NCBI GenBank assembly: GCA_964016885.1
Contig: OZ024742.1
Location: 98,890,001 to 98,954,000, forward strand
Length of the DNA: 64,000 nucleotides
From: Eledone cirrhosa
Taxonomy: Eukaryota
Reading direction: 5' to 3'
Position 1 is the first letter of the stretch. The number at the start of each line of letters is the position of its first letter. A program made the translations under genes and the position numbers. The notes under the pieces were generated by a model that saw nothing but the letters and a program-made list of their open reading frames with translations, did not search any database and had not been told where the DNA came from. This document shows positions 6,839 through 62,492 of the stretch, piece by piece.

Positions 6839-7346
6839 ATATTGTTATACTTTGGGATGGTCGTGCTGCCAATAAAAACGCACACGCACCTGTTGGTTTT
6901 CTCGTCAGTTTATTATAAATTTCCGGTTGATCAGTTGGTTCGATATCCGGATGGTTGTTTATATCTTGTCAAAGCGCTTTCGTCACACAATATGTGACCT
7001 CCTCAGTGACTACATTTTTATATTATGTCCCTCCTTTGTTCTGTCCTACACCATTTTGTAAATAAACACATAAATAAACGCACACACACACACACGGATG
7101 TAACGCATGCGCAAAGTAAGCACACAAAAACAAGAATGTGGCAGGACAGAACAAAGGAGAGATACAAAAAATAAAAACCTAGTCATTGAGGAGGTCACCG
7201 AATGTGTTAAGAAAGAGCTTTGACAGTATATAAATAACCACCCGGTTAGCGAACCAAACGCTATTTTATAATACAATGAAGTGTAACAATTGCGTGGTGC
7301 GTGTATTTTTTATTTACAGAATGACCCTCCCAAAGTATAACAATAT
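6839..7346. mobile_element. Non-autonomous PLE-like element with inverted termini
   Basis: atattgttatactttggga.ggtc at the left end and gaccctcccaaagtataacaatat at the right. The same terminus occurs at 24510-24530, 33167, 53173 and 54045-54069. Two inverted HHR motifs lie inside. Confidence 0.7.
6968..7010 (-). ncRNA. Minimal type I hammerhead ribozyme motif
   Basis: Minus strand: gtca-CTGAGGA-g-gtcaca(tattg)tgtgac-GAAA-gcgc-TT-tgac. Stem I gtca/tgac, 6-bp stem II, palindromic loop III. A degenerate inverted copy lies at 7182-7224. Confidence 0.75.
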
Positions 7347-13364: not shown

Positions 13365-16090
13365 CACCAGGGCATCAAAGAGTGGGACAAGTACAATGGG
13401 GGGGGGGGGTTACATAAAAAGGTGTCCTCAATAAGGAGGAGGCAATAACAAAATATAAAAATATAAAAATATAAAATATAACAAAAATAAATTGAATAAC
13501 AAAATCCTCAATAGGGATGGGGCGCCTTGGAGGGCCGCACACACCCGCGAAAAAAGTGTGCAACCCTTTTCCTCGGGAGAGAGGGTGCTCCCTTGATCTT
13601 TTATCTTTCTCACTTACAGTCTGATGCCATTCTCGCCACTTTCACCCATCTTTCATAAAAGCGGCTGGGGTGCAGCACCTCTCTCTCCATCCTGATCCTT
13701 CTTCCGAAATGATATCGGAAGAAACGGATCAGTTGTTGGCCAGAGAGAAAGGTGTCTGACCTCAGTCCTTTCAGACGCGTCCACCATACAACCTCTTTCA
13801 CCATGGCTATTACGCACAGAAACACCGTCTCTCCTTCATTTTTGAAGAGGGGAGGAGGCTTGATCGTTACAATAAACTCGGTGGTCAACCGGATCGGTCC
13901 CACCCTTGACATCTGTCGTTCGACATAGCCCCACAGGTCGGCAATGCCCGAGCAGTGTACCAATACATGTGCAACGGTTTCCTCGTCGCACACGCATCTG
14001 GGACAGATCTTTTTCGAGGGGTCACTACCCGGGCGCCTGTGTCTGTAGAGCATTTTTCGAACGGGCAGAGTCCCTCGGAAGCACTGCCAGGCCAGGGACC
14101 TCTGGAAGTTATCCATAGGTCCCGGGCTGAATGTCCCCTCGAACGGGTCCGCCTGTCAGAGAGCCGTTAGTGCCTGGGCACACTCTGTGTTCCAGGCGCC
14201 CAGTTTTCTCGGTCTTTGCTTGACCCAGGATTGCAGCTAGGTGAGCGAGACGAGTCAGGGAAAGGCTCGCCTCACGAACGGGGCCCACACCGGTTGAACG
14301 GTGAGGAATACCTGGAGGTGCCGTAGCCTTAATGCGTGTTTACGCATCATCAGCCACGGCATCCCCAGCCCTCCTTTCGAAGGGTGGACAGCAGATGGAT
14401 CTCCTCACATAGGAGCCCGCTTCTTCCAAAGGAATTGGAAGAGTGCGCGCTCCATTTTGGCGAGCGTTTCCCTTCGGCAAGGCACGACGGTCAGGCGGTA
14501 GTAGATGACGGACGCTATATAAGTGTTCGCCAGCTCCGTCCGAACTTTCAGGGACAGTTTGCACTCGGCCCACTTCTGGGTAGTGCAAACTCCCTGTTCG
14601 TTACCTCACCCCAGTTCTTCTCCTCCTGGAGGTCTGGTCCGAACCAGACCCCGAGCAACTTCACCGGGCCCTCCGTCCAGCGCCCGACGACGCCATCGGA
14701 GTGCATCGATTTGCCCATCCACGTTCCGAGTTGCAAACCGATCGACTTGTCCCGGTTTAGCTTAGCCCCTGTAAACCTGTCGTACTCCTCCAGTAAGGTG
14801 CCGATCGCCCCGATTTCCGAGGCCGTCGACACCATTACGGTTACGTCATCGGCGTAGGCGGACACCGCTTTCCGCAATCCCGGTTCCAACGGGATGCCCT
14901 GCAACAACATCAACTTCCGCAACAGTGGCTCTAGCGCCATTACATACAGAAGGGAGAAGAGAGGGCAACCTTGTCGGATGGACCGTGCGATTTCGAACGG
15001 CTCCGAGAGGTAGCCATTCACCTTGACTCTAGAGCAGATGCGGCTGCTGTGCATGGCAGTGATCCAACCCCTGAAAACAGGTCAGAAGCCTGCCGCCGCT
15101 AGCACCGCATCCAGATAACCATGGTCGACCCTATCAAATGCCTTAGATTGATCCAAGTTGATCAGGGCCCCACCAAAGCCGGGTTCGTTCCCAACCCTCT
15201 CTATGATGTATCGCATGAGGTGGAGGTTGTCCTGGATGGACCTCGACGGGATAGCACATGTCTGCCCATCTCCCACCCGGTTGCCCACGACAAGCGCCTA
15301 CCTCTTTGCTAGCACCTTGGCCAACATCTGTAACTCTGTATTTAGCAGAGTTATGGGCCTAAAATTATTTATATCGTCCCCCTTGTTCTCGTCCTTCCTC
15401 ATTAGCGTGACTACGCCCTTGGTCACAGCACAGGGAATCCTCCGGTCCTTTTGCCAGTTGCAGTTTACCGCCTCGAGGAGATCGGGGAACAAGTCCGGCA
15501 TAGCTAGATATAGTTCGTATGGAAGACCATCGAGACCCGGGGATTTTCGTTTGCCGCATTGGCTCAGCACGTTATCTATCTCAGCGGCTGAAATCGGCTC
15601 CTCGCAGGACTTCGCCTCCATGACCGTGAGACGCGGCAGGCCGTCGAGGTATGGACCGAAGTCCACTTCCCCAACCGGCTCCCCGCCCCTTCCGAACAAT
15701 CTGGCAAAGTGCTTTTGAAAAGCCTCGCACATCTGCTTAGGTTCAAGGATCACCCGACCATCCTGGTCTCGCAAAGACCGGATAGTTGATTTACTCCCTC
15801 TTTTGGCTTCTGTCACGCGGGCCCAGCTAACAGCTTTGGTCCCCTCGTTTCCCAGAGCACATATTTTGCTTCGGACGATGCAGCCTTCGTGTTTCGCGTC
15901 GAAGAACTGGCCCAGGGCCGTTCTCGACGCTAGCACTCTGGCCACGTCGCCGCTTCTAATTGCCTCTTCTACACTATCTACCAACTCCCTTTCGTTCCTA
16001 TTTCTATTTGAGGCTAACTCCTTACTAAATTCTATAGAGACTACTGTAATCTCTCTTTTGAGAGATCCCCACCAACTGCTGTTGACGATA
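13365..16090 (-). mobile_element. 5'-truncated L1/Tx1-like LINE (ORF2 RT plus C-terminal CCHC), disrupted
   Basis: KSPGLDGLP, NFRPITLLN, LDQSKAFDRVDH, IRQGCPL, AYADDVT, CPRC...ET..H...C. Frameshifts and an internal deletion relative to the 59.5-62.5 kb copy. Confidence 0.9.
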
Positions 16091-16890
16091 GAATGGTAGC
16101 GTCAATACTAAGAGTAGACAGTTTTTTCACCACAAGTTTTGGAGGAGTGATATTTCTCAGCAAAATAACTGGCGTTCCCTCTTTCAGAACCAATGTATTA
16201 GGAGGTAAACCGGGAGGATTTAAAGAATTTAGAAATTCAACTGGATAATTGAGCGCATCCTGTGGATCACATATAGAATCAATAGATTTATATATCCGTG
16301 GACATCCAGGAAGAAGCTGAGGAATTTGATCGTTAATACAGCTAACCGTGATATTTTTGGGTGCAAGAATGGCTCTTTCAGTTAGCCAATCAAGATTCGT
16401 ATAGTTATCACGCAAGTTAGGGAATACAGTCGCCTTGAGATCATCGACAGTTTCAACTACATTGCAGATGTGGTCAATTGCTATGTGTCCATCTGTATCC
16501 GGAGGTAAGTTACCATCTCCTATTGTAAGCATATCTCCAGAAAATACTGATGACAGAGGGTCCCCATGCAATCTTGCACGCATGTCGGTAATTAGTCTTA
16601 ATGATGTCACTTGTCTCCACAATCGCTCTTCAGTAGGCAGCGGTTGCAGTGATCCAATGAGATGATACACCTGGCCCTGTACTTTGAAAGTCAGCATAAA
16701 TCCATCTTTCTTCAGACGTTTTGCACCGAAAGAGGTCATTTGAAACGCAATGTTGTACTGTCGGATATGCTTCAGAAAATCACGTGATTGTGAATGTTTA
16801 CCTGTTAGAAGCATCTGGAGAGGTTGCGGTGGTTCCCTAAGGGTGGGCAAATTAACCTTACCATTGGAGTAGCACATTGCAGCTGATTCT
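16091..16890 (-). mobile_element. Helitron RepHel fragment with internal deletion
   Basis: N-terminal Helitron motifs (GKVNLP...FLKHIRQYN.AFQMTSFG...FKVQGQVYH.IGSL) are fused in frame to Pif1-like helicase C-terminal motifs (L..DMR, ERAILAPKN, YPVEFLNSL.PPGLP, L.LK.G.PVILLRN). Confidence 0.85.
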
Positions 16891-17456
16891 AGACTGCTGC
16901 GAGATTAGGCCCTTACCGCGAAAATTAACACTTAATATAGTGAAACAAGTGAAAACAAGAAGTGTTTTTTTAACTTTGAAAGTGCAACAAATTTTTGTTT
17001 GTATCAACAAGGCTTATGAAAGTAGCGATACCGACTTTGGGGGTTTTACAGACGACGACATTCAGAATAGACAAGAAACAAACGATAATATTAGTGATTT
17101 ATCTTCAAATGAATTTGATGTTTATATTTCTGAAATTTCGTCCGACGATAATTGTTGTTTTGAAAGTGAAAATGAAGGTCTCCATATCTCCCCTCTCTCA
17201 CTCTCTTTATAAGGATTGTTAATAAAGTTTGTTATCTCCCTTACATCATGGACTTTAGAAAAAATAATTTTTGGTATCGATAATTTTGGTATCGATTTTT
17301 TATTGCTCAACGTGGGTCGATTTGAAAAATGTTTGTAATGTTACCATCCTAGCGACAGGTGCAGCGTGCGTAGAAAAATTTGGTCAAATTCGGTTGGGAA
17401 TTGTAAAAGCCTTAGGTATCCACATTTGTACACAGACACACACACATCCTCGCTTT

Positions 17457-17497
<41 letters not shown>

Positions 17498-17503
<6 letters not shown>

Positions 17504-20500
17504 AAGTGAGTCCTTCATCAGTGACCCTCCAACCGTCCTCGGCATTTCATCGCTTTAAGGGCCATATGCCTCAGGTTGGTGCGAACAACGGCTAAAAAAA
17601 GTCGTTGGGACACGTAAATAAAGGGGGACGCTAGAGTAACAACAAAGGGGTTTAAGCAACGGAAAGTGAGTAGAAATAGACAAGTCCCAGATCTATATGG
17701 CCCTTAAAGCGATGAAATGCCGAGGACGGTTGGAGGGTCACTGATGAAGGACTCACTTTTTCATATGTATCCCATTTGCAACGCCGCAGCTCCATTATTA
17801 TCATCATATTTACACATATTACTTTTCCATACTGCCTGTCTGTTTCGTTCCTTGTATCTTTACCACTTCTAGCAGTCTCCCTCACTGTTATTCTCTCCTC
17901 AACTTTCACTCACTCATTCTCTGTCACTACCTCTCCTCCTCCTCTTTCCTCCTCCTCCTTCAAGTTTGACCTGTGTGTAATTCTTTTCTCGCGCAGTCTT
18001 GACCGAGCTGGTATGGAATTTTTTTCTCTCTCTCTTTCGTCGGCGACTTCACAAAACTTGCGTTTACCGAATTCGTAGACCAGACGACTTTATCTTCTTC
18101 TTCTTCTTCTTCTTCTTCCTCTTCTCTCCTTTTTCTTTCTCTCTCTCTCTCTTTTTTCCCCCCCGTCAAACTTGGGCGAAATTCTTTCCTTGCTCACATT
18201 TCTACCAGGTTCGATGGTCTTTCGTCTCTTGTTCACGATTTCACAGAGTTTATATTCATAGAGATCTGGGACTTGTCTATTTCTACTCACTTTCCGTTGC
18301 TTAAACCCCTTTGTTGTTACTCTAGCGTCCCCCTTTATTTACGTGTCCCAACGACTTTTTTTAGCCGTTGTTCGCACCAACCTGAGGCATATGGCCCTTA
18401 AAGCGATGAAATGCCGAGGACGGTTGGAGGGTCACTGATGAAGGACTCACTTTTTCATATGTATCCCATTTGCAACGCCGCAGCTCCATTATTATCATCA
18501 TATTTACACATATTACTTTTCCATGCTGCCTGTCTGTTTCGTTCCTTGTATCTTTACCACTTCTAGCAGTCTCCCTCTCTGTTACTCTCTCCTCAACTTT
18601 CACTCACTCATTCTCTGTCACTACCTCTCCTCCTCCTCTTTCCTCCTCCTCCTTCAAGTTTGACCTGTGTGTAATTCTTTTCTCGCGCAGTCTTGACCGA
18701 GCTGGTATGGAATTTTTTTCTCTCTCTCTTTCGTCTGCGACTTCACAAAACTTGCGTTTACCGTATTCGTAGACCAGACGACTTTATCTTCTTCTTCTTC
18801 TTCTTCTTCTTCTTCTTCTTCTTCTTCTTCTTCTTCTTCTTCTTCTTCTTCTTCTTCCTCTTCTCTCCTTTTTCTTTCTCTCTCTCTCTCTTTTTTCCCC
18901 CCCGTCAAACTTGGGCGAAATTCTTTCCTTGCTCACATTTCTACCAGGTTCGATGGTCTTTCGTCTCTTGTTCACGATTTCACAGAGTTTATATTCATAG
19001 AGATCTGGGACTTGTCTATTTCTACTCACTTTCCGTTGCTTAAACCCCTTTGTTGTTACTCTAGCGTCCCCCTTTATTTACGTGTCCCAACGACTTTTTT
19101 TAGCCGTTGTTCGCACCAACCTAAGGCATATGGCCCTTAAAGCGATGAAATGCCGAGGACGGTTGGAGGGTCACTGATGAAGGACTCACTTTTTCATATG
19201 TATCCCATTTGCAACGCCGCAGCTCCATTATTATCATCATATTTACACATATTACTTTTCCATGTTGCCTGTCTGTTTCGTTCCTTGTATCTTTACCACT
19301 TCTAGCAGTCTCCCTCTCTGTTACTCTCTCCTCAACTTTCACTCACTCATTCTCTGTCACTACCTCTCCTCCTCCTCTTTCCTCCTCCTCCTTCAAGTTT
19401 GACCTGTGTGTAATTCTTTTCTCGCGCAGTCTTGACCGAGCTGGTATGGAATTTTTTTCTCTCTCTCTTTCGTCTGCGACTTCACAAAACTTGCGTTTAC
19501 CGAATTCGTAGACCAGACGACTTTATCTTCTTCTTCTTCTTCTTCTTCTTCTTCTTCTTCTTCTTCTTCTTCTTCTTCTTCTTCTTCTTCTTCTTCTTCT
19601 TCTTCTTCTTCTTCTTCCTCTTCTCTCCTTTTTCTTTCTCTCTCTCTCTCTTTTTTCCCCCCCGTCAAACTTGGGCGAAATTCTTTCCTTGCTCACATTT
19701 CTACCAGGTTCGATAGTCTTTCGTCTCTTGTTCACGATTTCACAGAGTTTATATTCATAGAGATCTGGGACTTGTCTATTTCTACTCACTTTCCGTTGCT
19801 TAAACCCCTTTGTTGTTACTCTAGCGTCCCCCTTTATTTACGTGTCCCAACGACTTTTTTTAGCCGTTGTTCGCACCAACCTGAGGCATATGGCCCTTAA
19901 AGCGATGAAATGCCGAGGACGGTTGGAGGGTCACTGATGAAGGACTCACTTTTTCATATGTATCCCATTTGCAACGCCGCAGCTCCATTATTATCATCAT
20001 ATTTACACATATTACTTTTCCATGTTGCCTGTCTGTTTCGTTCCTTGTATCTTTACCACTTCTAGCAGTCTCCCTCTCTGTTACTCTCTCCTCAACTTTC
20101 ACTCACTCATTCTCTGTCACTACCTCTCCTCCTCCTCTTTCCTCCTCCTCCTTCAAGTTTGACCTGTGTGTAATTCTTTTCTCGCGCAGTCTTGACCGAG
20201 CTGGTATGGAATTTTTTTCTCTCTCTCTTTCGTCTGCGACTTCACAAAACTTGCGTTTACCGTATTCGTAGACCAGACGACTTTATCTTCTTCTTCTTCT
20301 TCTTCTTCTTCTTCTTCTTCTTCTTCTTCTTCTTCTTCTTCTTCTTCTTCTTCTTCCTCTTCTCTCCTTTTTCTTTCTCTCTCTCTCTCTTTTTTCCCCC
20401 CCGTCAAACTTGGGCGAAATTCTTTCCTTGCTCACATTTCTACCAGGTTCGATGGTCTTTCGTCTCTTGTTCACGATTTCACAGAGTTTATATTCATAGA

Positions 20501-22972
20501 GATCTGGGACTTGTCTATTTCTACTCACTTTCCGTTGCTTAAACCCCTTTGTTGTTACTCTAGCGTCCCCCTTTATTTACGTGTCCCAACGACTTTTTTT
20601 AGCCGTTGTTCGCACCAACCTAAGGCATATGGCCCTTAAAGCGATGAAATGCCGAGGACGGTTGGAGGGTCACTGATGAAGGACTCACTTTTTCATATGT
20701 ATCCCATTTGCAACGCCGCAGCTCCATTATTATCATCATATTTACACATATTACTTTTCCATGTTGCCTGTCTGTTTCGTTCCTTGTATCTTTACCACTT
20801 CTAGCAGTCTCCCTCTCTGTTACTCTCTCCTCAACTTTCACTCACTCATTCTCTGTCACTACCTCTCCTCCTCCTCTTTCCTCCTCCTCCTTCAAGTTTG
20901 ACCTGTGTGTAATTCTTTTCTCGCGCAGTCTTGACCGAGCTGGTATGGAATTTTTTTCTCTCTCTCTTTCGTCTGCGACTTCACAAAACTTGCGTTTACC
21001 GAATTCGTAGACCAGACGACTTTATCTTCTTCTTCTTCTTCTTCTTCTTCTTCTTCTTCTTCTTCTTCTTCTTCTTCTTCTTCTTCTTCTTCTTCTTCTT
21101 CTTCTTCTTCTTCTTCTTCCTCTTCTCTCCTTTTTCTTTCTCTCTCTCTCTCTTTTTTCCCCCCCGTCAAACTTGGGCGAAATTCTTTCCTTGCTCACAT
21201 TTCTACCAGGTTCGATAGTCTTTCGTCTCTTGTTCACGATTTCACAGAGTTTATATTCATAGAGATCTGGGACTTGTCTATTTCTACTCACTTTCCGTTG
21301 CTTAAACCCCTTTGTTGTTACTCTAGCGTCCCCCTTTATTTACGTGTCCCAACGACTTTTTTTAGCCGTTGTTCGCACCAACCTGAGGCATATGGCCCTT
21401 AAAGCGATGAAATGCCGAGGACGGTTGGAGGGTCACTGATGAAGGACTCACTTTTTCATATGTATCCCATTTGCAACGCCGCAGCTCCATTATTATCATC
21501 ATATTTACACATATTACTTTTCCATGTTGCCTGTCTGTTTCGTTCCTTGTATCTTTACCACTTCTAGCAGTCTCCCTCTCTGTTACTCTCTCCTCAACTT
21601 TCACTCACTCATTCTCTGTCACTACCTCTCCTCCTCCTCTTTCCTCCTCCTCCTTAAAGTTTGACCTGTGTGTAATTCTTTTCTCGCGCAGTCTTGACCG
21701 AGCTGGTATGGAATTTTTTTCTCTCTCTCTTTCGTCTGCGACTTCACAAAACTTGCGTTTACCGAATTCGTAGACCAGACCACTTTATCTTCTTCTTCTT
21801 CTTCTTCTTCTTCTTCTTCTTCTTCTTCTTCCTCTTCTCTCCTTTTTTCTTTCTCTCTCTCTCTCTCTTTTTTCCCCCACGTCAAACTTGGGCGAAATTC
21901 TTTCCTTGCTCACATTTCTACCAGGTTCGATGGTCTTTCGTCTCTTGTTCACGATTTCACAGAGTTTATATTCATAGAGATCTGGGACTTGTCTATTTCT
22001 ACTCACTTTCCGTTGCTTAAACCCCTTTGTTATTACTCTAGCGTCCCCCTTTATTTACGTGTCCCAACGACTTTTTTTAGCCGTTGTTCGCACCAACCTG
22101 AGGCATATGGCCCTTAAAGCGATGAAATGCCGAGGACGGTTGGAGGGTCACTGATGAAGGACTCACTTTTTCATATGTATCCCATTTGCAACGCCGCAGC
22201 TCCATTATTATCATCATATTTACACATATTACTTTTCCATGCTGCCTGTCTGTTTCGTTCCTTGTATCTTTACCACTTCTAGCAGTCTCCCTCTCTGTTA
22301 CTCTCTCCTCAACTTTCACTCACTCATTCTCTGTCACTACCTCTCCTCCTCCTCTTTCCTCCTCCACCTTCAAGTTTGACCTGTGTGTAATTCTTTTCTC
22401 GCGCAGTCTTGACCGAGCTGGTATGGAATTTTTTTCTCTCTCTCTTTCGTCTGCGACTTCACAAAACTTGCGTTTACCGAATTCGTAGACCAGACGACTT
22501 TATCTTCTTCTTCTTCTTCTTCTTCTTCTTCTTCTTCTTCTTCTTCTTCTTCTTCTTCTTCTTCTTCTTCTTCTTCTTCTTCTTCTTCTTCTTCCTCTTC
22601 TCTCCTTTTTCTTTCTCTCTCTCTCTCTTTTTTCCCCCCCGTCAAACTTGGGCGAAATTCTTTCCTTGCTCACATTTCTACCAGGTTCGATGGTCTTTCG
22701 TCTCTTGTTCACGATTTCACAGAGTTTATATTCATAGAGATCTGGGACTTGTCTATTTCTACTCACTTTCCGTTGCTTAAACCCCTTTGTTGTTACTCTA
22801 GCGTCCCCCTTTATTTACGTGTCCCAACGACTTTTTTTAGCCGTTGTTCGCACCAACCTGAGGCACATGGCCCTTAAAGCGATGAAATGCCGAGGACGGT
22901 TGGAGGGTCACTGATGAAGGACTCACTTTTTCATATGTATCCCATTTGCAACGCCGCAGCTCCATTATTATC

Positions 22973-22974
<2 letters not shown>
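17498..22974 (+). repeat. Tandem array of a ~0.7 kb non-coding unit with internal (TTC)n and a 5' inverted partial copy; retrozyme/PLE-like
   Basis: Units start at 17698, 18392, 19131, 19891, 20630, 21393, 22108 and 22868 (lengths 694, 739, 760, 739, 763, 715, 760). 17498-17694 is the reverse complement of the unit-junction region. (TA)n flanks both sides. Confidence 0.95.
18377..18474 (+). ncRNA. Candidate hammerhead ribozyme with reversed strand order and a kink-turn (representative copy; recurs at each unit junction)
   Basis: ccaacc-tga-ggca-TA|tggccct-taaa-gcga-t-GAAA-tgcc-gag-ga-c-ggttgg-agggtca-CTGATGA-a... Stems I and III pair in exact hammerhead register, with covariation against the 33247-33345 copy. 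Confidence 0.65.
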
Positions 22975-23034
<60 letters not shown>

Positions 23035-33204: not shown

Positions 33205-33811
33205 AAACGATATATAAACATGAGAAGAAAGAAGAATACTGCGTGGTTGCAAATGGGTTACATATGATAAAGATTGTCCTTCGTCAGTGACTTTCCAACC
33301 ATCATTGGTAATTCATCGCATTAAAAATCCGATACCTCAGGTTGGTGCGAGCAATAAGGAAAAAAAGTTATTGGGACCAGTAATTCGCGTAAAGCGAGGG
33401 GGACAAATAAACAACATAGAAGGATATAAGCAAACCGAAGATAGGAAAATAAACAAGCAACATGGTTGTCCGGTCAGCATAAGCTCGGTAGATTTCATGA
33501 GCGAGAGTTACAAACTGTCCGATGTGTGTGAGATGTAAGCAAGAAGAGACCCACTACAAGCCAAACGGGCGGAAGTGAGAAGGGGAGAAACAGAGAGTGA
33601 GTGAGTGGAAGTGTGAGGAAGAGGTCAGTCGAGAGAAAGTGTAACTGACGGAGGGGGCGAAAGAAGGTGAGAGAAACAGAGAGAGCGGGGAAGCAGTAAG
33701 AGAGAAACAGACAAACGCAGCCGAGGTAAATATATATAAAAAAACATGAGAAGAAAGAAGAATACTGCGTGGTTGCAAATGGGTTACATTTGATAAAATA
33801 GTCCTTCGTCA

Positions 33812-38544: not shown

Positions 38545-41572
<3,028 letters not shown>

Positions 41573-52114: not shown

Positions 52115-54069
<1,955 letters not shown>

Positions 54070-59498: not shown

Positions 59499-62492
59499 CC
59501 ACCAGGGCATCAAAGATTGGAACACATACAAAGGGGGGGAGTTTACATACATTTAAAAAGACGTGTAAAAAACATATAACAAATTAAATTTAACAATCGA
59601 TGTCCTCAATAGGGAGGGGCGTTGACATGGGTCGCACACACCCCCGAAAAAATGTGCAACGCTCCTCTTCAGGAGCACAAAGAGCGGGTGCTTCCTTCCT
59701 CTCCTCATTCTTCTCCTCTCTCACCTACAGGCTGATATAGAGAGAAGGCCCATTCACTCGGGCCATTCTCGCTACTTTCACCCATCTTTCATAAAACTTG
59801 CTGGGGTAGAGCACCCCTCTCTCCATTCTGATCCTTCTTCTAAAGTGGTACTTGAAAAAAAAGACCAGTTGTTGGCCGGAGAGATAGGTGTCTGACCTCA
59901 GCCCTTTCAACCTTGTCCACCATACAACTTCTTTCGCCATGGCTATCACACAGAGGAAAACCGCCTCTCCTTCGTTTTTGAAAGGAGGAGGCGGTTTGAT
60001 TGTGACAATGTTCTCGGTGGTCAACCGGATTGGTCCCACCCGCGACAGTAGTCGTTCTACATAGCCCCACAGGTCAGCAACGCCCGGGCAGTGTACGAAT
60101 GCGTGTGCGACGGTTTCCTCGTCACGCACGCATCTTGGACAGATCTTCTTCGAGGGGTCCCTACCCGGGCGCCCGTGTCTGTAGAGCTTGTCCCGAACGG
60201 GTAGAGCTCCTCGGTAACATTGCCAAGCCAGGGACTTTTGGAAGTTGTCAATCGGTCCCGGGCCAAACGTCCAACCGAACAGACTGGCCAGCTCGTCTTC
60301 CTCCATGCCCAGAGCCTGTCCGAGAGCGTCGTCGCACTTACTGCGCACCAACCCTCTATAGAATGTTGAGGTTGAGTCTCCACTGATTGCCGGATCCGCT
60401 TGCCAGAGGGCCGTGAGCGCCTGGGCACATTCAATGTGCCAGTCGCCCATTTTTCTCGGTCTTTGCTTGACCCAGGATTGCAGCTCGGTGAGTGAGACGA
60501 GTCTCGGAAAGGCTCGCCTCACAAACAGGGCCCACACCGGCTGACCGGTGAGGAATACCTGGAGGTGCCGTAGCCTTAATGCGTGTCTACGCATCGTCAG
60601 CCACGGCCCCCCAGCCCTCCGTTCGAAGGGTGTTGACAGCAGATGGATCTTCTCACCAAAGGAGCCCGCTTCTTCCAAAGAAATCGGAAGAGCGCGCGCT
60701 CCATTTTGGCGAGTGTTTTCTCTGGGCAAGGCACGACGGTCAAGCGGTAGTAGATGACGGACGCTATATAAGCGTTCGCCACCTCCGCTCGACCTTTCAG
60801 GGATAGTTTGCACTCGGCCCACTTCTGGGCGAGTGCAAACACCTTGCCCGTTATCTCGTCCCAGTTTTTCTCCACCTGGAGGTCCGGTCCGAACCAGACC
60901 CCGAGCAGCTTCACCGGTCTCTCCGTCCAGCGTCCGACGATGCCGTCGGAGGGCATCGTTTTGCCCCTCCACGTCCCGAGTTGCAAACCGACGGACTTGT
61001 CCCGGTTCAGCTTGGCTCCTGTGAACCTTTCATATTCCTCCAGTAAGGTGCCGATCTGCCCGATTTCCGAGGCGCACGACACCATTACTGTCACGTCATC
61101 GGCGTAGGCCGACACCGCTTTCCGCAATCCCGATTCCAAGGGGATGCCCTGCAACAGCTCCAGCTTCCTCAGTAGTGGCTCGAGAGCCAGCACATACAGG
61201 AGCGAGGAGAGAGGGCATCCCTGTCGAATGGATCGCGTGATTTGGAACGGCTCCGAGAGGTAGCCGTTCACCTTGACCCTCGAGCAGGTGTTGCTGCTGT
61301 GCATTGCAGCAATCCAGCCCCTGAAAACGGGTTCGAAGCCTGCCGCCGCGAGCACCGCATCCAGGTACCGATGGTCAACCCTATCGAACGCTTTAGATTG
61401 ATCCAAGTTGATCAGGGCCCCACCAAAGCCGGGTTCGTTCCCTACCCTCTCTACGATGTATCGCATGAGGTGGAGGTTGTCGTGTATGGACCTGGACGGG
61501 ATTGCGCATGTCTGCGCTTCTCCCACCAGGTTCCCGACGACAAGCGCCAACCTCTTCGCTAACACCTTGGCCAAAATCTTTAACTCTGTGTTTAGCAGAG
61601 TTATGGGCCTGAAGTTATCTATGTCATCCCCCTTGTTCTCGTCCTTCCTCACCAGCGTGACTACGCCCTTGGTCACAGAACTGGGAATTCTCCCGTTCTG
61701 TTGCCAGTTGCAGTAGACCGCCTCGAGGAGACCGGAGAACAAGCCCGGCATCGCTACATAAAGTTCGTATGGTAGACCATCGAGACCCGGAGATTTGCGT
61801 TTGCCGCATTGGCTCAGCGCTTTCCCTATTTCAGCGGCTGAAATCGGCCTCTCGCAGGACTTCGCCTCCCTGTCCGAGAGCCGCGCCAGACCGTCGAGGT
61901 ATGGACGAAATCCATGGCCCCACCCGGCCCGCCGCCCCTCCCGAACAGTCGTGCAAAGCGCCGTTGAAAGGCCGCGCTCATCCGCTCAGGTTCAAGGTTC
62001 ACGCGTCCATCCTGGTCCTTCAAAGACCGAATCGTGGACTTGTTTCCACTTTTTGCCTCTGTCACTCGGGCCCAGCTAACAGCTTTGGCTCCCTCGTTAC
62101 CCAGAGCACGTATTTTACTCCTGACAACGCAGCCCTCGTGCTTCGCATCAAAGAACTGGTCTAGGGCCGTTCTTGACGCCATCACGCCGGCCACTCCTAA
62201 TCGCCTCTTCTACTCTATTTGTTAATTCCCTTTCAGTTCTATTCCTATCTGATGCTAATTCCCGACTAAAACCTATCGATTCTATTCTAATTTCTCTCTT
62301 GAAAGAGCCCCACCACCTCCTGTTGACAATTGCCCCCGTCAAACGCTGCTTAACTAGTGTGCTAATCCGCTTACTGTAAGCTTTGTTTGTCGGTAAAGAC
62401 AAGTCTAGCTTCCAGTAACCGGGTCCCTGTCTATGAGTTCTATCAAGGTTGACCACTCCGGTCAATAACTTGTGATCCGAATAGTCAACCAT
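59499..62492 (-). mobile_element. 5'-truncated L1/Tx1-like LINE ORF2 (end of APE, RT, CCHC), frameshifted
   Basis: YSDHK...GPGYWKL, NFRPITLLN, KAFDRVDH, RQGCPLS, YADDV, CPRC..H..C. The 3' end caccagggcatcaaag is shared with 13365. Confidence 0.92.

Follow-up and report, generated by a model that had tools for sequence, protein, structure and literature searches.

The sequence at 18377-18427 (plus strand) of the window, meaning the whole 64-kb stretch of DNA that was analysed, was confirmed by its letters as a standard kink-turn (k-turn) pattern, in which UGA faces a 3-nt bulge plus GA between stem III of a predicted hammerhead ribozyme and a further helix, P4. This k-turn probably serves as a structural elbow, its folding likely driven by Mg2+ together with ring closure, in a predicted hammerhead with its blocks in the non-circular order cleavage site, GAAA, CUGAUGA (S-G-C), carried by a likely non-autonomous Naiad.

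Structure of the predicted k-turn ribozyme

All parts of the ribozyme were located on the plus strand. The 5' flank, supported by covariation, comprised the 5' arm of helix Pa (18345-18348), hairpin Pb (18349-18370) and the 5' arm of helix Pc (18372-18375). The P4 5' arm ccaacc (18377-18382) pairs with gguugg (18422-18427) and forms the non-bulged strand of the NC helix of the k-turn. It was followed by uga (18383-18385), giving U3n, G2n and A1n, which face the bulge and GA, and by the stem III 5' arm ggcau (18386-18390), which ends in U16.1, pairs with 18411-18415 and serves as the C helix of the k-turn. H17 is the a at 18391, and by analogy with the hammerhead core, cleavage was predicted 3' of A18391. 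The stem I 3' arm uggcccu (18392-18398, pairing with 18428-18434) led into the UAA(N) linker uaaa (18399-18402), conserved among 35 chosen copies, and then into the 3' arm of Pc, gcga (18403-18406, pairing with 18372-18375), which a single u follows. The GAAA core block with the stem III 3' arm occupied 18408-18415 (GAA at 18408-18410, augcc at 18411-18415) and matched the core. Next came the 3-nt bulge L1-L3, gag, of variable sequence (18416-18418), the conserved GA of G1b and A2b (18419-18420) with C3b (18421), and the P4 3' arm (18422-18427). The stem I 5' arm aggguca (18428-18434) and the CUGAUGA block (18435-18441), again a core match, were followed by N10.1 and the Pa 3' arm (18442-18446, the arm being 18443-18446), whose pairing was seen in the aligned copies. 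The segment 18345-18375 together with 18443-18446 formed a junction standing in for stem II.

The original prediction of CUGA facing a 3-nt bulge plus GA, reading gag-GA-c in the array, thus held letter for letter at 18377-18427. The tandem pairs fell in k-turn register (G18419.A18385 and A18420.G18384), with C.U at 3b.3n, and the 3-nt bulge lay between a canonical helix (stem III) and a non-canonical one (P4). The P4 3' strand ran into the stem I 5' arm (18422-18434) with a spacer of 0 nt, and the claim that the k-turn routes the chain back to stem I had good support from the sequence. RNAfold, as a nested model, predicted P4 and stem III; pseudoknots lie outside such a model.

The k-turn belonged to a tandem array read from the sequence at 17695-22975 (plus strand), with units of 694-763 bp and seven complete ribozymes followed by (TA)n; unit 1 began about 3 nt 5' of the predicted cut. 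An inverted, 5'-truncated copy with complete ribozyme and k-turn was found at 17492-17699 (minus strand), abutting (TA)n at 17460-17499. Among the eight complete array copies, 2n was A instead of G in two (19123 and 20622) and U16.1 was changed to C in one (22866, the last unit). The G2n to A change and an equal TCT-repeat length in alternate array units suggested that a dimer was duplicated. A related ribozyme of family B was read at 33276-33376 (minus strand), with its k-turn at 33295-33345, and there the aau-GA-u opposite CUGA described earlier for the 33.3 kb relative was found as stated. This relative carried the private changes A15.1 to U and U1.1 to G, which were absent from most family B members.

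No reverse transcriptase (RT) or GIY-YIG frame was detected in the window repeat unit, and an Rfam gathering scan of the 64-kb window gave 0 matches. Elsewhere in the window, all on the minus strand, lay what we take to be Penelope-type RT thumb and GIY-YIG fragments (52115-53030 and 39320-39781), a LINE-type reverse transcriptase frame that, judged by its motifs, is presumably present in two broken copies (13610-16101 and 59725-61985), and a fragment (16041-16904) that we assume to resemble a Helitron PIF1-type helicase. A hammerhead core in canonical, type I-like order was also observed on the minus strand at about 6975-7010, and similar type I-like cores were present in several fetched loci adjoining Penelope-type remnants.

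Covariation and conservation

An alignment was made of 35 natural copies picked to span the lineages, with 75 gap-free columns; the copies are related and hence non-independent. Two-sided changes were found in 19 of 23 pairs, with covariation in P4 (5/6), stem III (4/5), stem I (6/7) and Pc (3/4). The covariation score was reached in none of 500 shuffles, and slid registers fell to 33-49% paired. These conservation and pairing figures are inflated, because 30 of the 35 copies had passed a pairing filter and most search patterns contained the bulge-side GA. In 28 copies, two additional helices and a hairpin covaried and took the place of most of stem II; Pa and Pb showed two-sided changes in 4/4 and 6/7 pairs, with 80% and 67% of cells paired, respectively. 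The Pb hairpin seemed to be absent from the oldest (J) copies. Stem II itself was reduced to at most one pair, 10.1-11.1, present in 26 of the 35 copies and unpaired in 9.

The core elements CUGANGA, GAAA and U16.1-H17 were present in S-G-C order. GAAA was invariant in the alignment, as the search patterns demanded, and H17 was A or C in 34/35 copies. The UAA linker (18399-18401) was conserved like the core (U 35/35, A 34/35, A 35/35) and may make tertiary contacts. In pre-selected loci, a scan that assumed no geometry or spacing returned 360 core matches (reversed control 0); of the 131 distinct cores, 123 had a GAA-to-CUGA spacing of 24 nt.

The whole genome (3.0 Gb) was scanned with a pattern that took the stem I linker and GAAAU as its anchors and left the non-bulged strand free. 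GA at the 1b/2b register was found in 15,351 matches (reversed-pattern control 0), and neither G nor A in 133 (control 16); these are the both-letters and neither-letter classes, and single-letter changes fall outside both counts. The k-turn GA therefore exceeded chance. Thirty of the 133 neither-letter loci were read, and among them no family without the bulge-side GA was found; what they showed were truncations, indels or decay of single copies, and three neighbouring loci shared one deletion. On the non-bulged strand, 88 copies fetched from the GA matches had GA (77), UA (6) or other letters (5) at 2n-1n, with A1n in 84. The non-bulged GA was also found in 82 of the 86 copies that reached past P4 among 100 consecutive copies on contig C1. 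For older families, a GA-free pattern gave 290 matches (control 2), and GA was read by eye in 82 of the 100 matches listed. The 3-nt non-bulged register was present in 275 of 287 filtered copies; A1n was kept in 271 of these 275, and 2n was G in 251, U in 17, A in 4 and C in 3.

In DNA run X1, with 1,030 contigs, variants at a level of at least 5% occurred at 3n, L1, L3, 3b and the stems and at none of the four k-turn purines. In the 35-copy alignment, A1n was kept in 34 copies and G1b and A2b were invariant, an invariance that is partly ascertainment, most copies having been found by patterns with the bulge-side GA. Parsimony steps on the tree of these copies numbered 0 for G1b, 0 for A2b, 1 for A1n, 6 for 2n, 6-8 for L1-L3, 7 for 3b and 10 for 3n. 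The bulge varied in sequence and kept its 3-nt length in most copies. G2n was replaced by U throughout the E/H/J clade. One multi-copy subfamily (L120, L121, L128 and L396) had an insert of 3 bases separating A1n from stem III, and other subfamilies had 1 extra base within P4 or at the P4-stem I joint. The 3-base insert fell where k-junctions insert a helix.

Across lineages, G1b, A2b and A1n stayed constant while the bulge, 3b.3n and all flanking helices changed, which gave the proposed k-turn identity good support at the level of sequence. The expectation that the GA dinucleotides are conserved across the family stood for G1b, A2b and A1n and failed in part at one position, G2n, which is U in a whole clade.

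Relation to Naiads and to type-SGC hammerheads

Naiads are reported to insert in (TA)n and to form tandem and inverted copies (Craig et al. 2021, PMC8557442), and the (TA)n targets, the tandem array and the inverted 5'-truncated copy in the window matched this insertion anatomy. According to the same source, canonical hammerheads are missing from Naiads, of which some have 'half cores', and Naiad_Ovul bears only the tag 'HHR_half_core'. When the 3' ends of Naiad_Obim and Naiad_Ovul (PMC8557442 File S5) were read by eye, the same hairpin, Pc, P4, full S-G-C core and 24-nt spacing were found. Their k-turns, also by eye, had UGA facing AAU-GA-U or AGU-GA-U, and the helix sequences differed from those of the array; bulge length 3, G1b, A2b and A1n were fixed from the array to Naiad_Obim. 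Since these Octopus Naiad 3' ends carry the same ribozyme and k-turn, the ribozyme repeat is likely a non-autonomous derivative of a Naiad, a Penelope-like element (PLE); it differs from the Naiads in having neither an RT nor a GIY-YIG frame. In the same file, three Acropora Naiads, Naiad_Esco (Euprymna) and a Naiad from the Morbakka part were read by eye to combine the S-G-C core with a P4-like helix; their U/A linker is short, and they have a plain bulge with no tandem GA. Among the nematode entries of File S5, four Naiad 3' ends read by eye as C-S-G hammerheads in which all three stems pair; two CSG hammerhead sequences only are given in Eckert et al. 2023 (PMC10085705).

No coding partner beside the ribozyme was accepted in the fetched loci, where tblastn with Penelope-type fragments as queries located RT/EN remnants nearby. 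Those of L398-L401 were in opposite orientation and had type I-like cores of their own, and in these loci the ribozyme repeats were seen inserted, in opposite orientation, within the Penelope-type remnants. The RT/EN remnant of L406, on the same strand 2.3 kb upstream, was not accepted either. Relatives were also absent from viral contigs (0) and from the 9 of 64 metagenome parts scanned by pattern, in which none of 117 loci paired at more than 13 of 18 positions.

The repeat was also compared with the animal non-LTR retrozymes, which have been proposed as non-autonomous PLE derivatives (PMC7229834; bioRxiv 10.64898/2026.07.22.740005). Both are noncoding tandem repeats with one hammerhead per unit. 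Retrozyme units measure about 150-450 bp and contain hammerheads of type I (same sources), whereas the present repeat has the non-circular order and units of about 530-760 bp and is known here from DNA alone.

The block order of the array is that of type-SGC hammerheads, which Eckert et al. 2023 described from metatranscriptomes only, with none from the genomes of known organisms (PMC10085705). HRIMA-1/SGC variants of that study and the array share the S-G-C order, the full core and a short U.A-type linker from stem I to GAAA. They differ in that the published SGC ribozymes have a stem II of 5-6 bp and form their additional helix with the 3' flank (PMC10085705), while in the array ribozyme the additional helix is P4, formed with the 5' flank via the k-turn, and stem II is replaced by the Pa/Pb/Pc junction. 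A multi-pair stem II and a I-II helix to the 3' flank were accordingly not found in the array ribozyme, which has one loose pair. A kink or k-turn is not mentioned in the main text of PMC10085705, nor a kink in its supplement text; neither term was found in PMC3088659 or PMC7229834, nor 'kink' in bioRxiv 10.64898/2026.07.22.740005. In the literature searched (titles and starts of abstracts, with few subscription papers), neither a natural hammerhead with a k-turn nor a permuted hammerhead in Naiads was found, and the term 'type-SGC' occurred solely in Eckert 2023.

Proposed mechanism and alternative explanations

Strand 1 of the ribozyme, with the P4 arm, UGA, stem III arm, cut site and stem I arm, pairs lengthwise with strand 2, which begins with the stem III arm and the bulge, continues with GA and the P4 arm and ends with the stem I arm and CUGAUGA. 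The result is a closed ring of three helices, stem III, P4 and stem I. The lengths of the ring are fixed (stem III 5 pairs, P4 6 plus 3, stem I 7). Such a ring would demand that the RNA bend sharply where stem III gives way to P4, a bend which the k-turn could provide through sheared G.A pairs and cross-strand contacts of A1n and A2b. Folding would proceed with Mg2+ and the help of the ring, docking P4 back towards stem I, and the k-turn would thereby pre-organise the core in place of the usual contact between loop I and loop II. The array transcript would be cut once per unit, 3' of A18391. The monomer ends could re-pair because the 3' end holds the P4 and stem III arms and the 5' end the rest, and they may possibly be ligated to a circle, which a Naiad reverse transcriptase would copy into (TA)n sites.

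The original prediction had gone further and held that the kink makes the reversed topology feasible. This was too strong: type-SGC ribozymes cleave in vitro with no k-turn described (PMC10085705), and the coral, box-jellyfish and squid Naiads read by eye have the same topology. As these Naiads keep the topology and P4 with a plain bulge, the kink is one solution, by which particular lineages achieve the bend with short helices, and the reversed order does not depend on it. Counted against the elbow itself were the changes at 2n, the inserts, the loose stem II, the many U.U lineages, the Naiads outside octopuses that lack the k-turn, and the 5' ends of truncated copies, which do not cluster at the predicted cut.

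In its parts, the array motif resembles Kt-7, box C/D and Kt-23 k-turns, sharing the 3-nt bulge, G1b.A1n, A2b.G2n, a non-canonical 3b.3n and C-G at -1; it differs from simple k-turns in that its C helix is stem III of the predicted ribozyme core. In the 35 copies, -1b.-1n was C-G in 25 and 3b.3n was non-Watson-Crick in 33, most commonly U.U, C.A, C.U, C.C, U.G or A.G; U.U, U.G, C.A, C.C and A.G are among the types found in solved k-turns (PMC4914095). A C at 3b or a G at 3n favours folding in ions (PMC8191799, PMC4382518), and the array, with C at 3b, is therefore predicted to fold protein-free in ions (PMC8191799). Non-canonical pairs of this kind, predicting protein-free folding, occurred in the array and in 45 of the 88 sampled copies.

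The latter count bears on the alternative that a host protein of the L7Ae family (15.5K/Snu13) must bind for ring closure, so that cleavage or circle formation would be protein-gated. This has a small but appreciable chance of being right. A box C/D-like combination, U.U at 3b.3n together with U at L3, is found in families B and D and in the two Octopus Naiad consensus ends; U.U was present in 28/88 sampled copies and L3 was U in 23/35. The archaeal U.U k-turn of box C/D type does not fold in ions alone and requires protein (PMC4382518), and L7Ae binds most k-turns (PMC8191799, PMC4382518). The box C/D likeness noted earlier thus extended to several lineages including Octopus Naiads, and it did not hold for the array (L3 = G, 3b.3n = C.U) or the U2n clade. 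However, L7Ae contacts G1b and G2n (PMC3884654), and a whole clade has U2n; L1-L3 and 3b.3n drift freely; ring closure alone can stabilise the kink; and related Naiad ribozymes have no such motif. Protein gating in the U.U lineages is possible and is unnecessary to explain the data, for which the ion- and ring-folded elbow is preferred.

At 2n, G was present in 6/8 array copies and in most young lineages; where 2n is U, in E/H/J, the k-turns are non-standard and Kt-23-like. There is a small chance that the element is a bulge with one sheared G.A or a looser purine hinge, its adenines docking elsewhere in the ribozyme, so that the 50-degree k-turn fold is not formed. Watson-Crick pairing is conceivable for A2b.U2n and C3b.G3n of family E, the insertion at 1n/-1n persists in one subfamily, and other Naiads use plain bulges. 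But in H and J a C.A or C.C mismatch flanks U2n, as in k-turns, and bulge length, G1b, A2b and A1n are fixed as far as Naiad_Obim. In Kt-23, 2n is the naturally varying position, and the Kt-23 of T. thermophilus folds with U2n (PMC5061560); a G2nA k-turn folds within SAM-I, rescued by tertiary context, and not as a duplex (PMC5061560).

Traces of cleavage were sought in the ends of truncated copies. The 5' ends numbered 220 at -4 to 0 of the predicted cut, 290 at +2 to +6 and 203 at -10 to -6, and about half of the 100 listed for the last interval were an intact subfamily. Genome-wide, no enrichment of 5' ends at the predicted cut was found, in a test that (TA)n microhomology blurs; among 100 consecutive copies, about 11 breaks lay near the site, 3 of them at 0 to +4, which was not significant. 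Fold-back or inverted junctions at the predicted cleavage site were observed at L441 (G000:C1:29085120-29085219) and L187 (G000:C1:14079648). The unenriched 5' ends, the location of the motif at the 3' end of the element and the reduced stem II with its loose 10.1-11.1 pair would all suit a structure that is retained so that the Naiad protein can recognise it or prime from it, with cleavage weak or absent. We give this only a slim chance, as the core nucleotides are intact across lineages with H17 avoiding G (34/35), and cleavage is on record both for natural hammerheads whose stem II is a single pair (PMC3088659) and for the published SGC ribozymes (PMC10085705). That CUGA/AUGAUG is a relic box C/D snoRNA motif, as the AUGAUG facing CUGA in family B might suggest, can practically be dismissed, for the D-like strand precedes the C-like one in the 5'-to-3' direction, the final A of box C is absent, the array reads GAGGAC, Rfam gave no match in the window, the motif lies inside hammerhead stems, and the snoRNA layout of 5' RUGAUGA, 3' CUGA and guide regions was not found.

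Implications

A far-reaching proposal is that Octopus Naiads and their noncoding derivatives hold the first natural ribozyme with a built-in k-turn, bound by host 15.5K/Snu13 to switch cleavage and circle formation. It would belong to an animal-wide non-circularly permuted class, of SGC type among cnidarians and cephalopods and of CSG type among nematodes, and this class would explain the seeming lack of ribozymes in Naiads. As a whole this is unlikely, if worth keeping in mind. The non-circularly permuted hammerhead, earlier environmental and of unnamed host, is now found in more than 15,000 animal chromosomal copies with deep covariation. Eckert et al. 2023 (PMC10085705) drew attention to an open steric point, the connection by which the chain returns from stem III to the side of stem I, and the k-turn is a specific candidate answer to it. 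The RNA of about 105 nt with a putative native L7Ae handle suits crystallography and the design of protein-responsive switches. For the Naiads themselves, the permuted ribozyme offers a concrete answer to the point of Craig et al. 2021 that they have no canonical hammerheads and in some cases 'half cores', and the permuted order would account for type I/II/III descriptors and Rfam missing the Naiad ribozymes.
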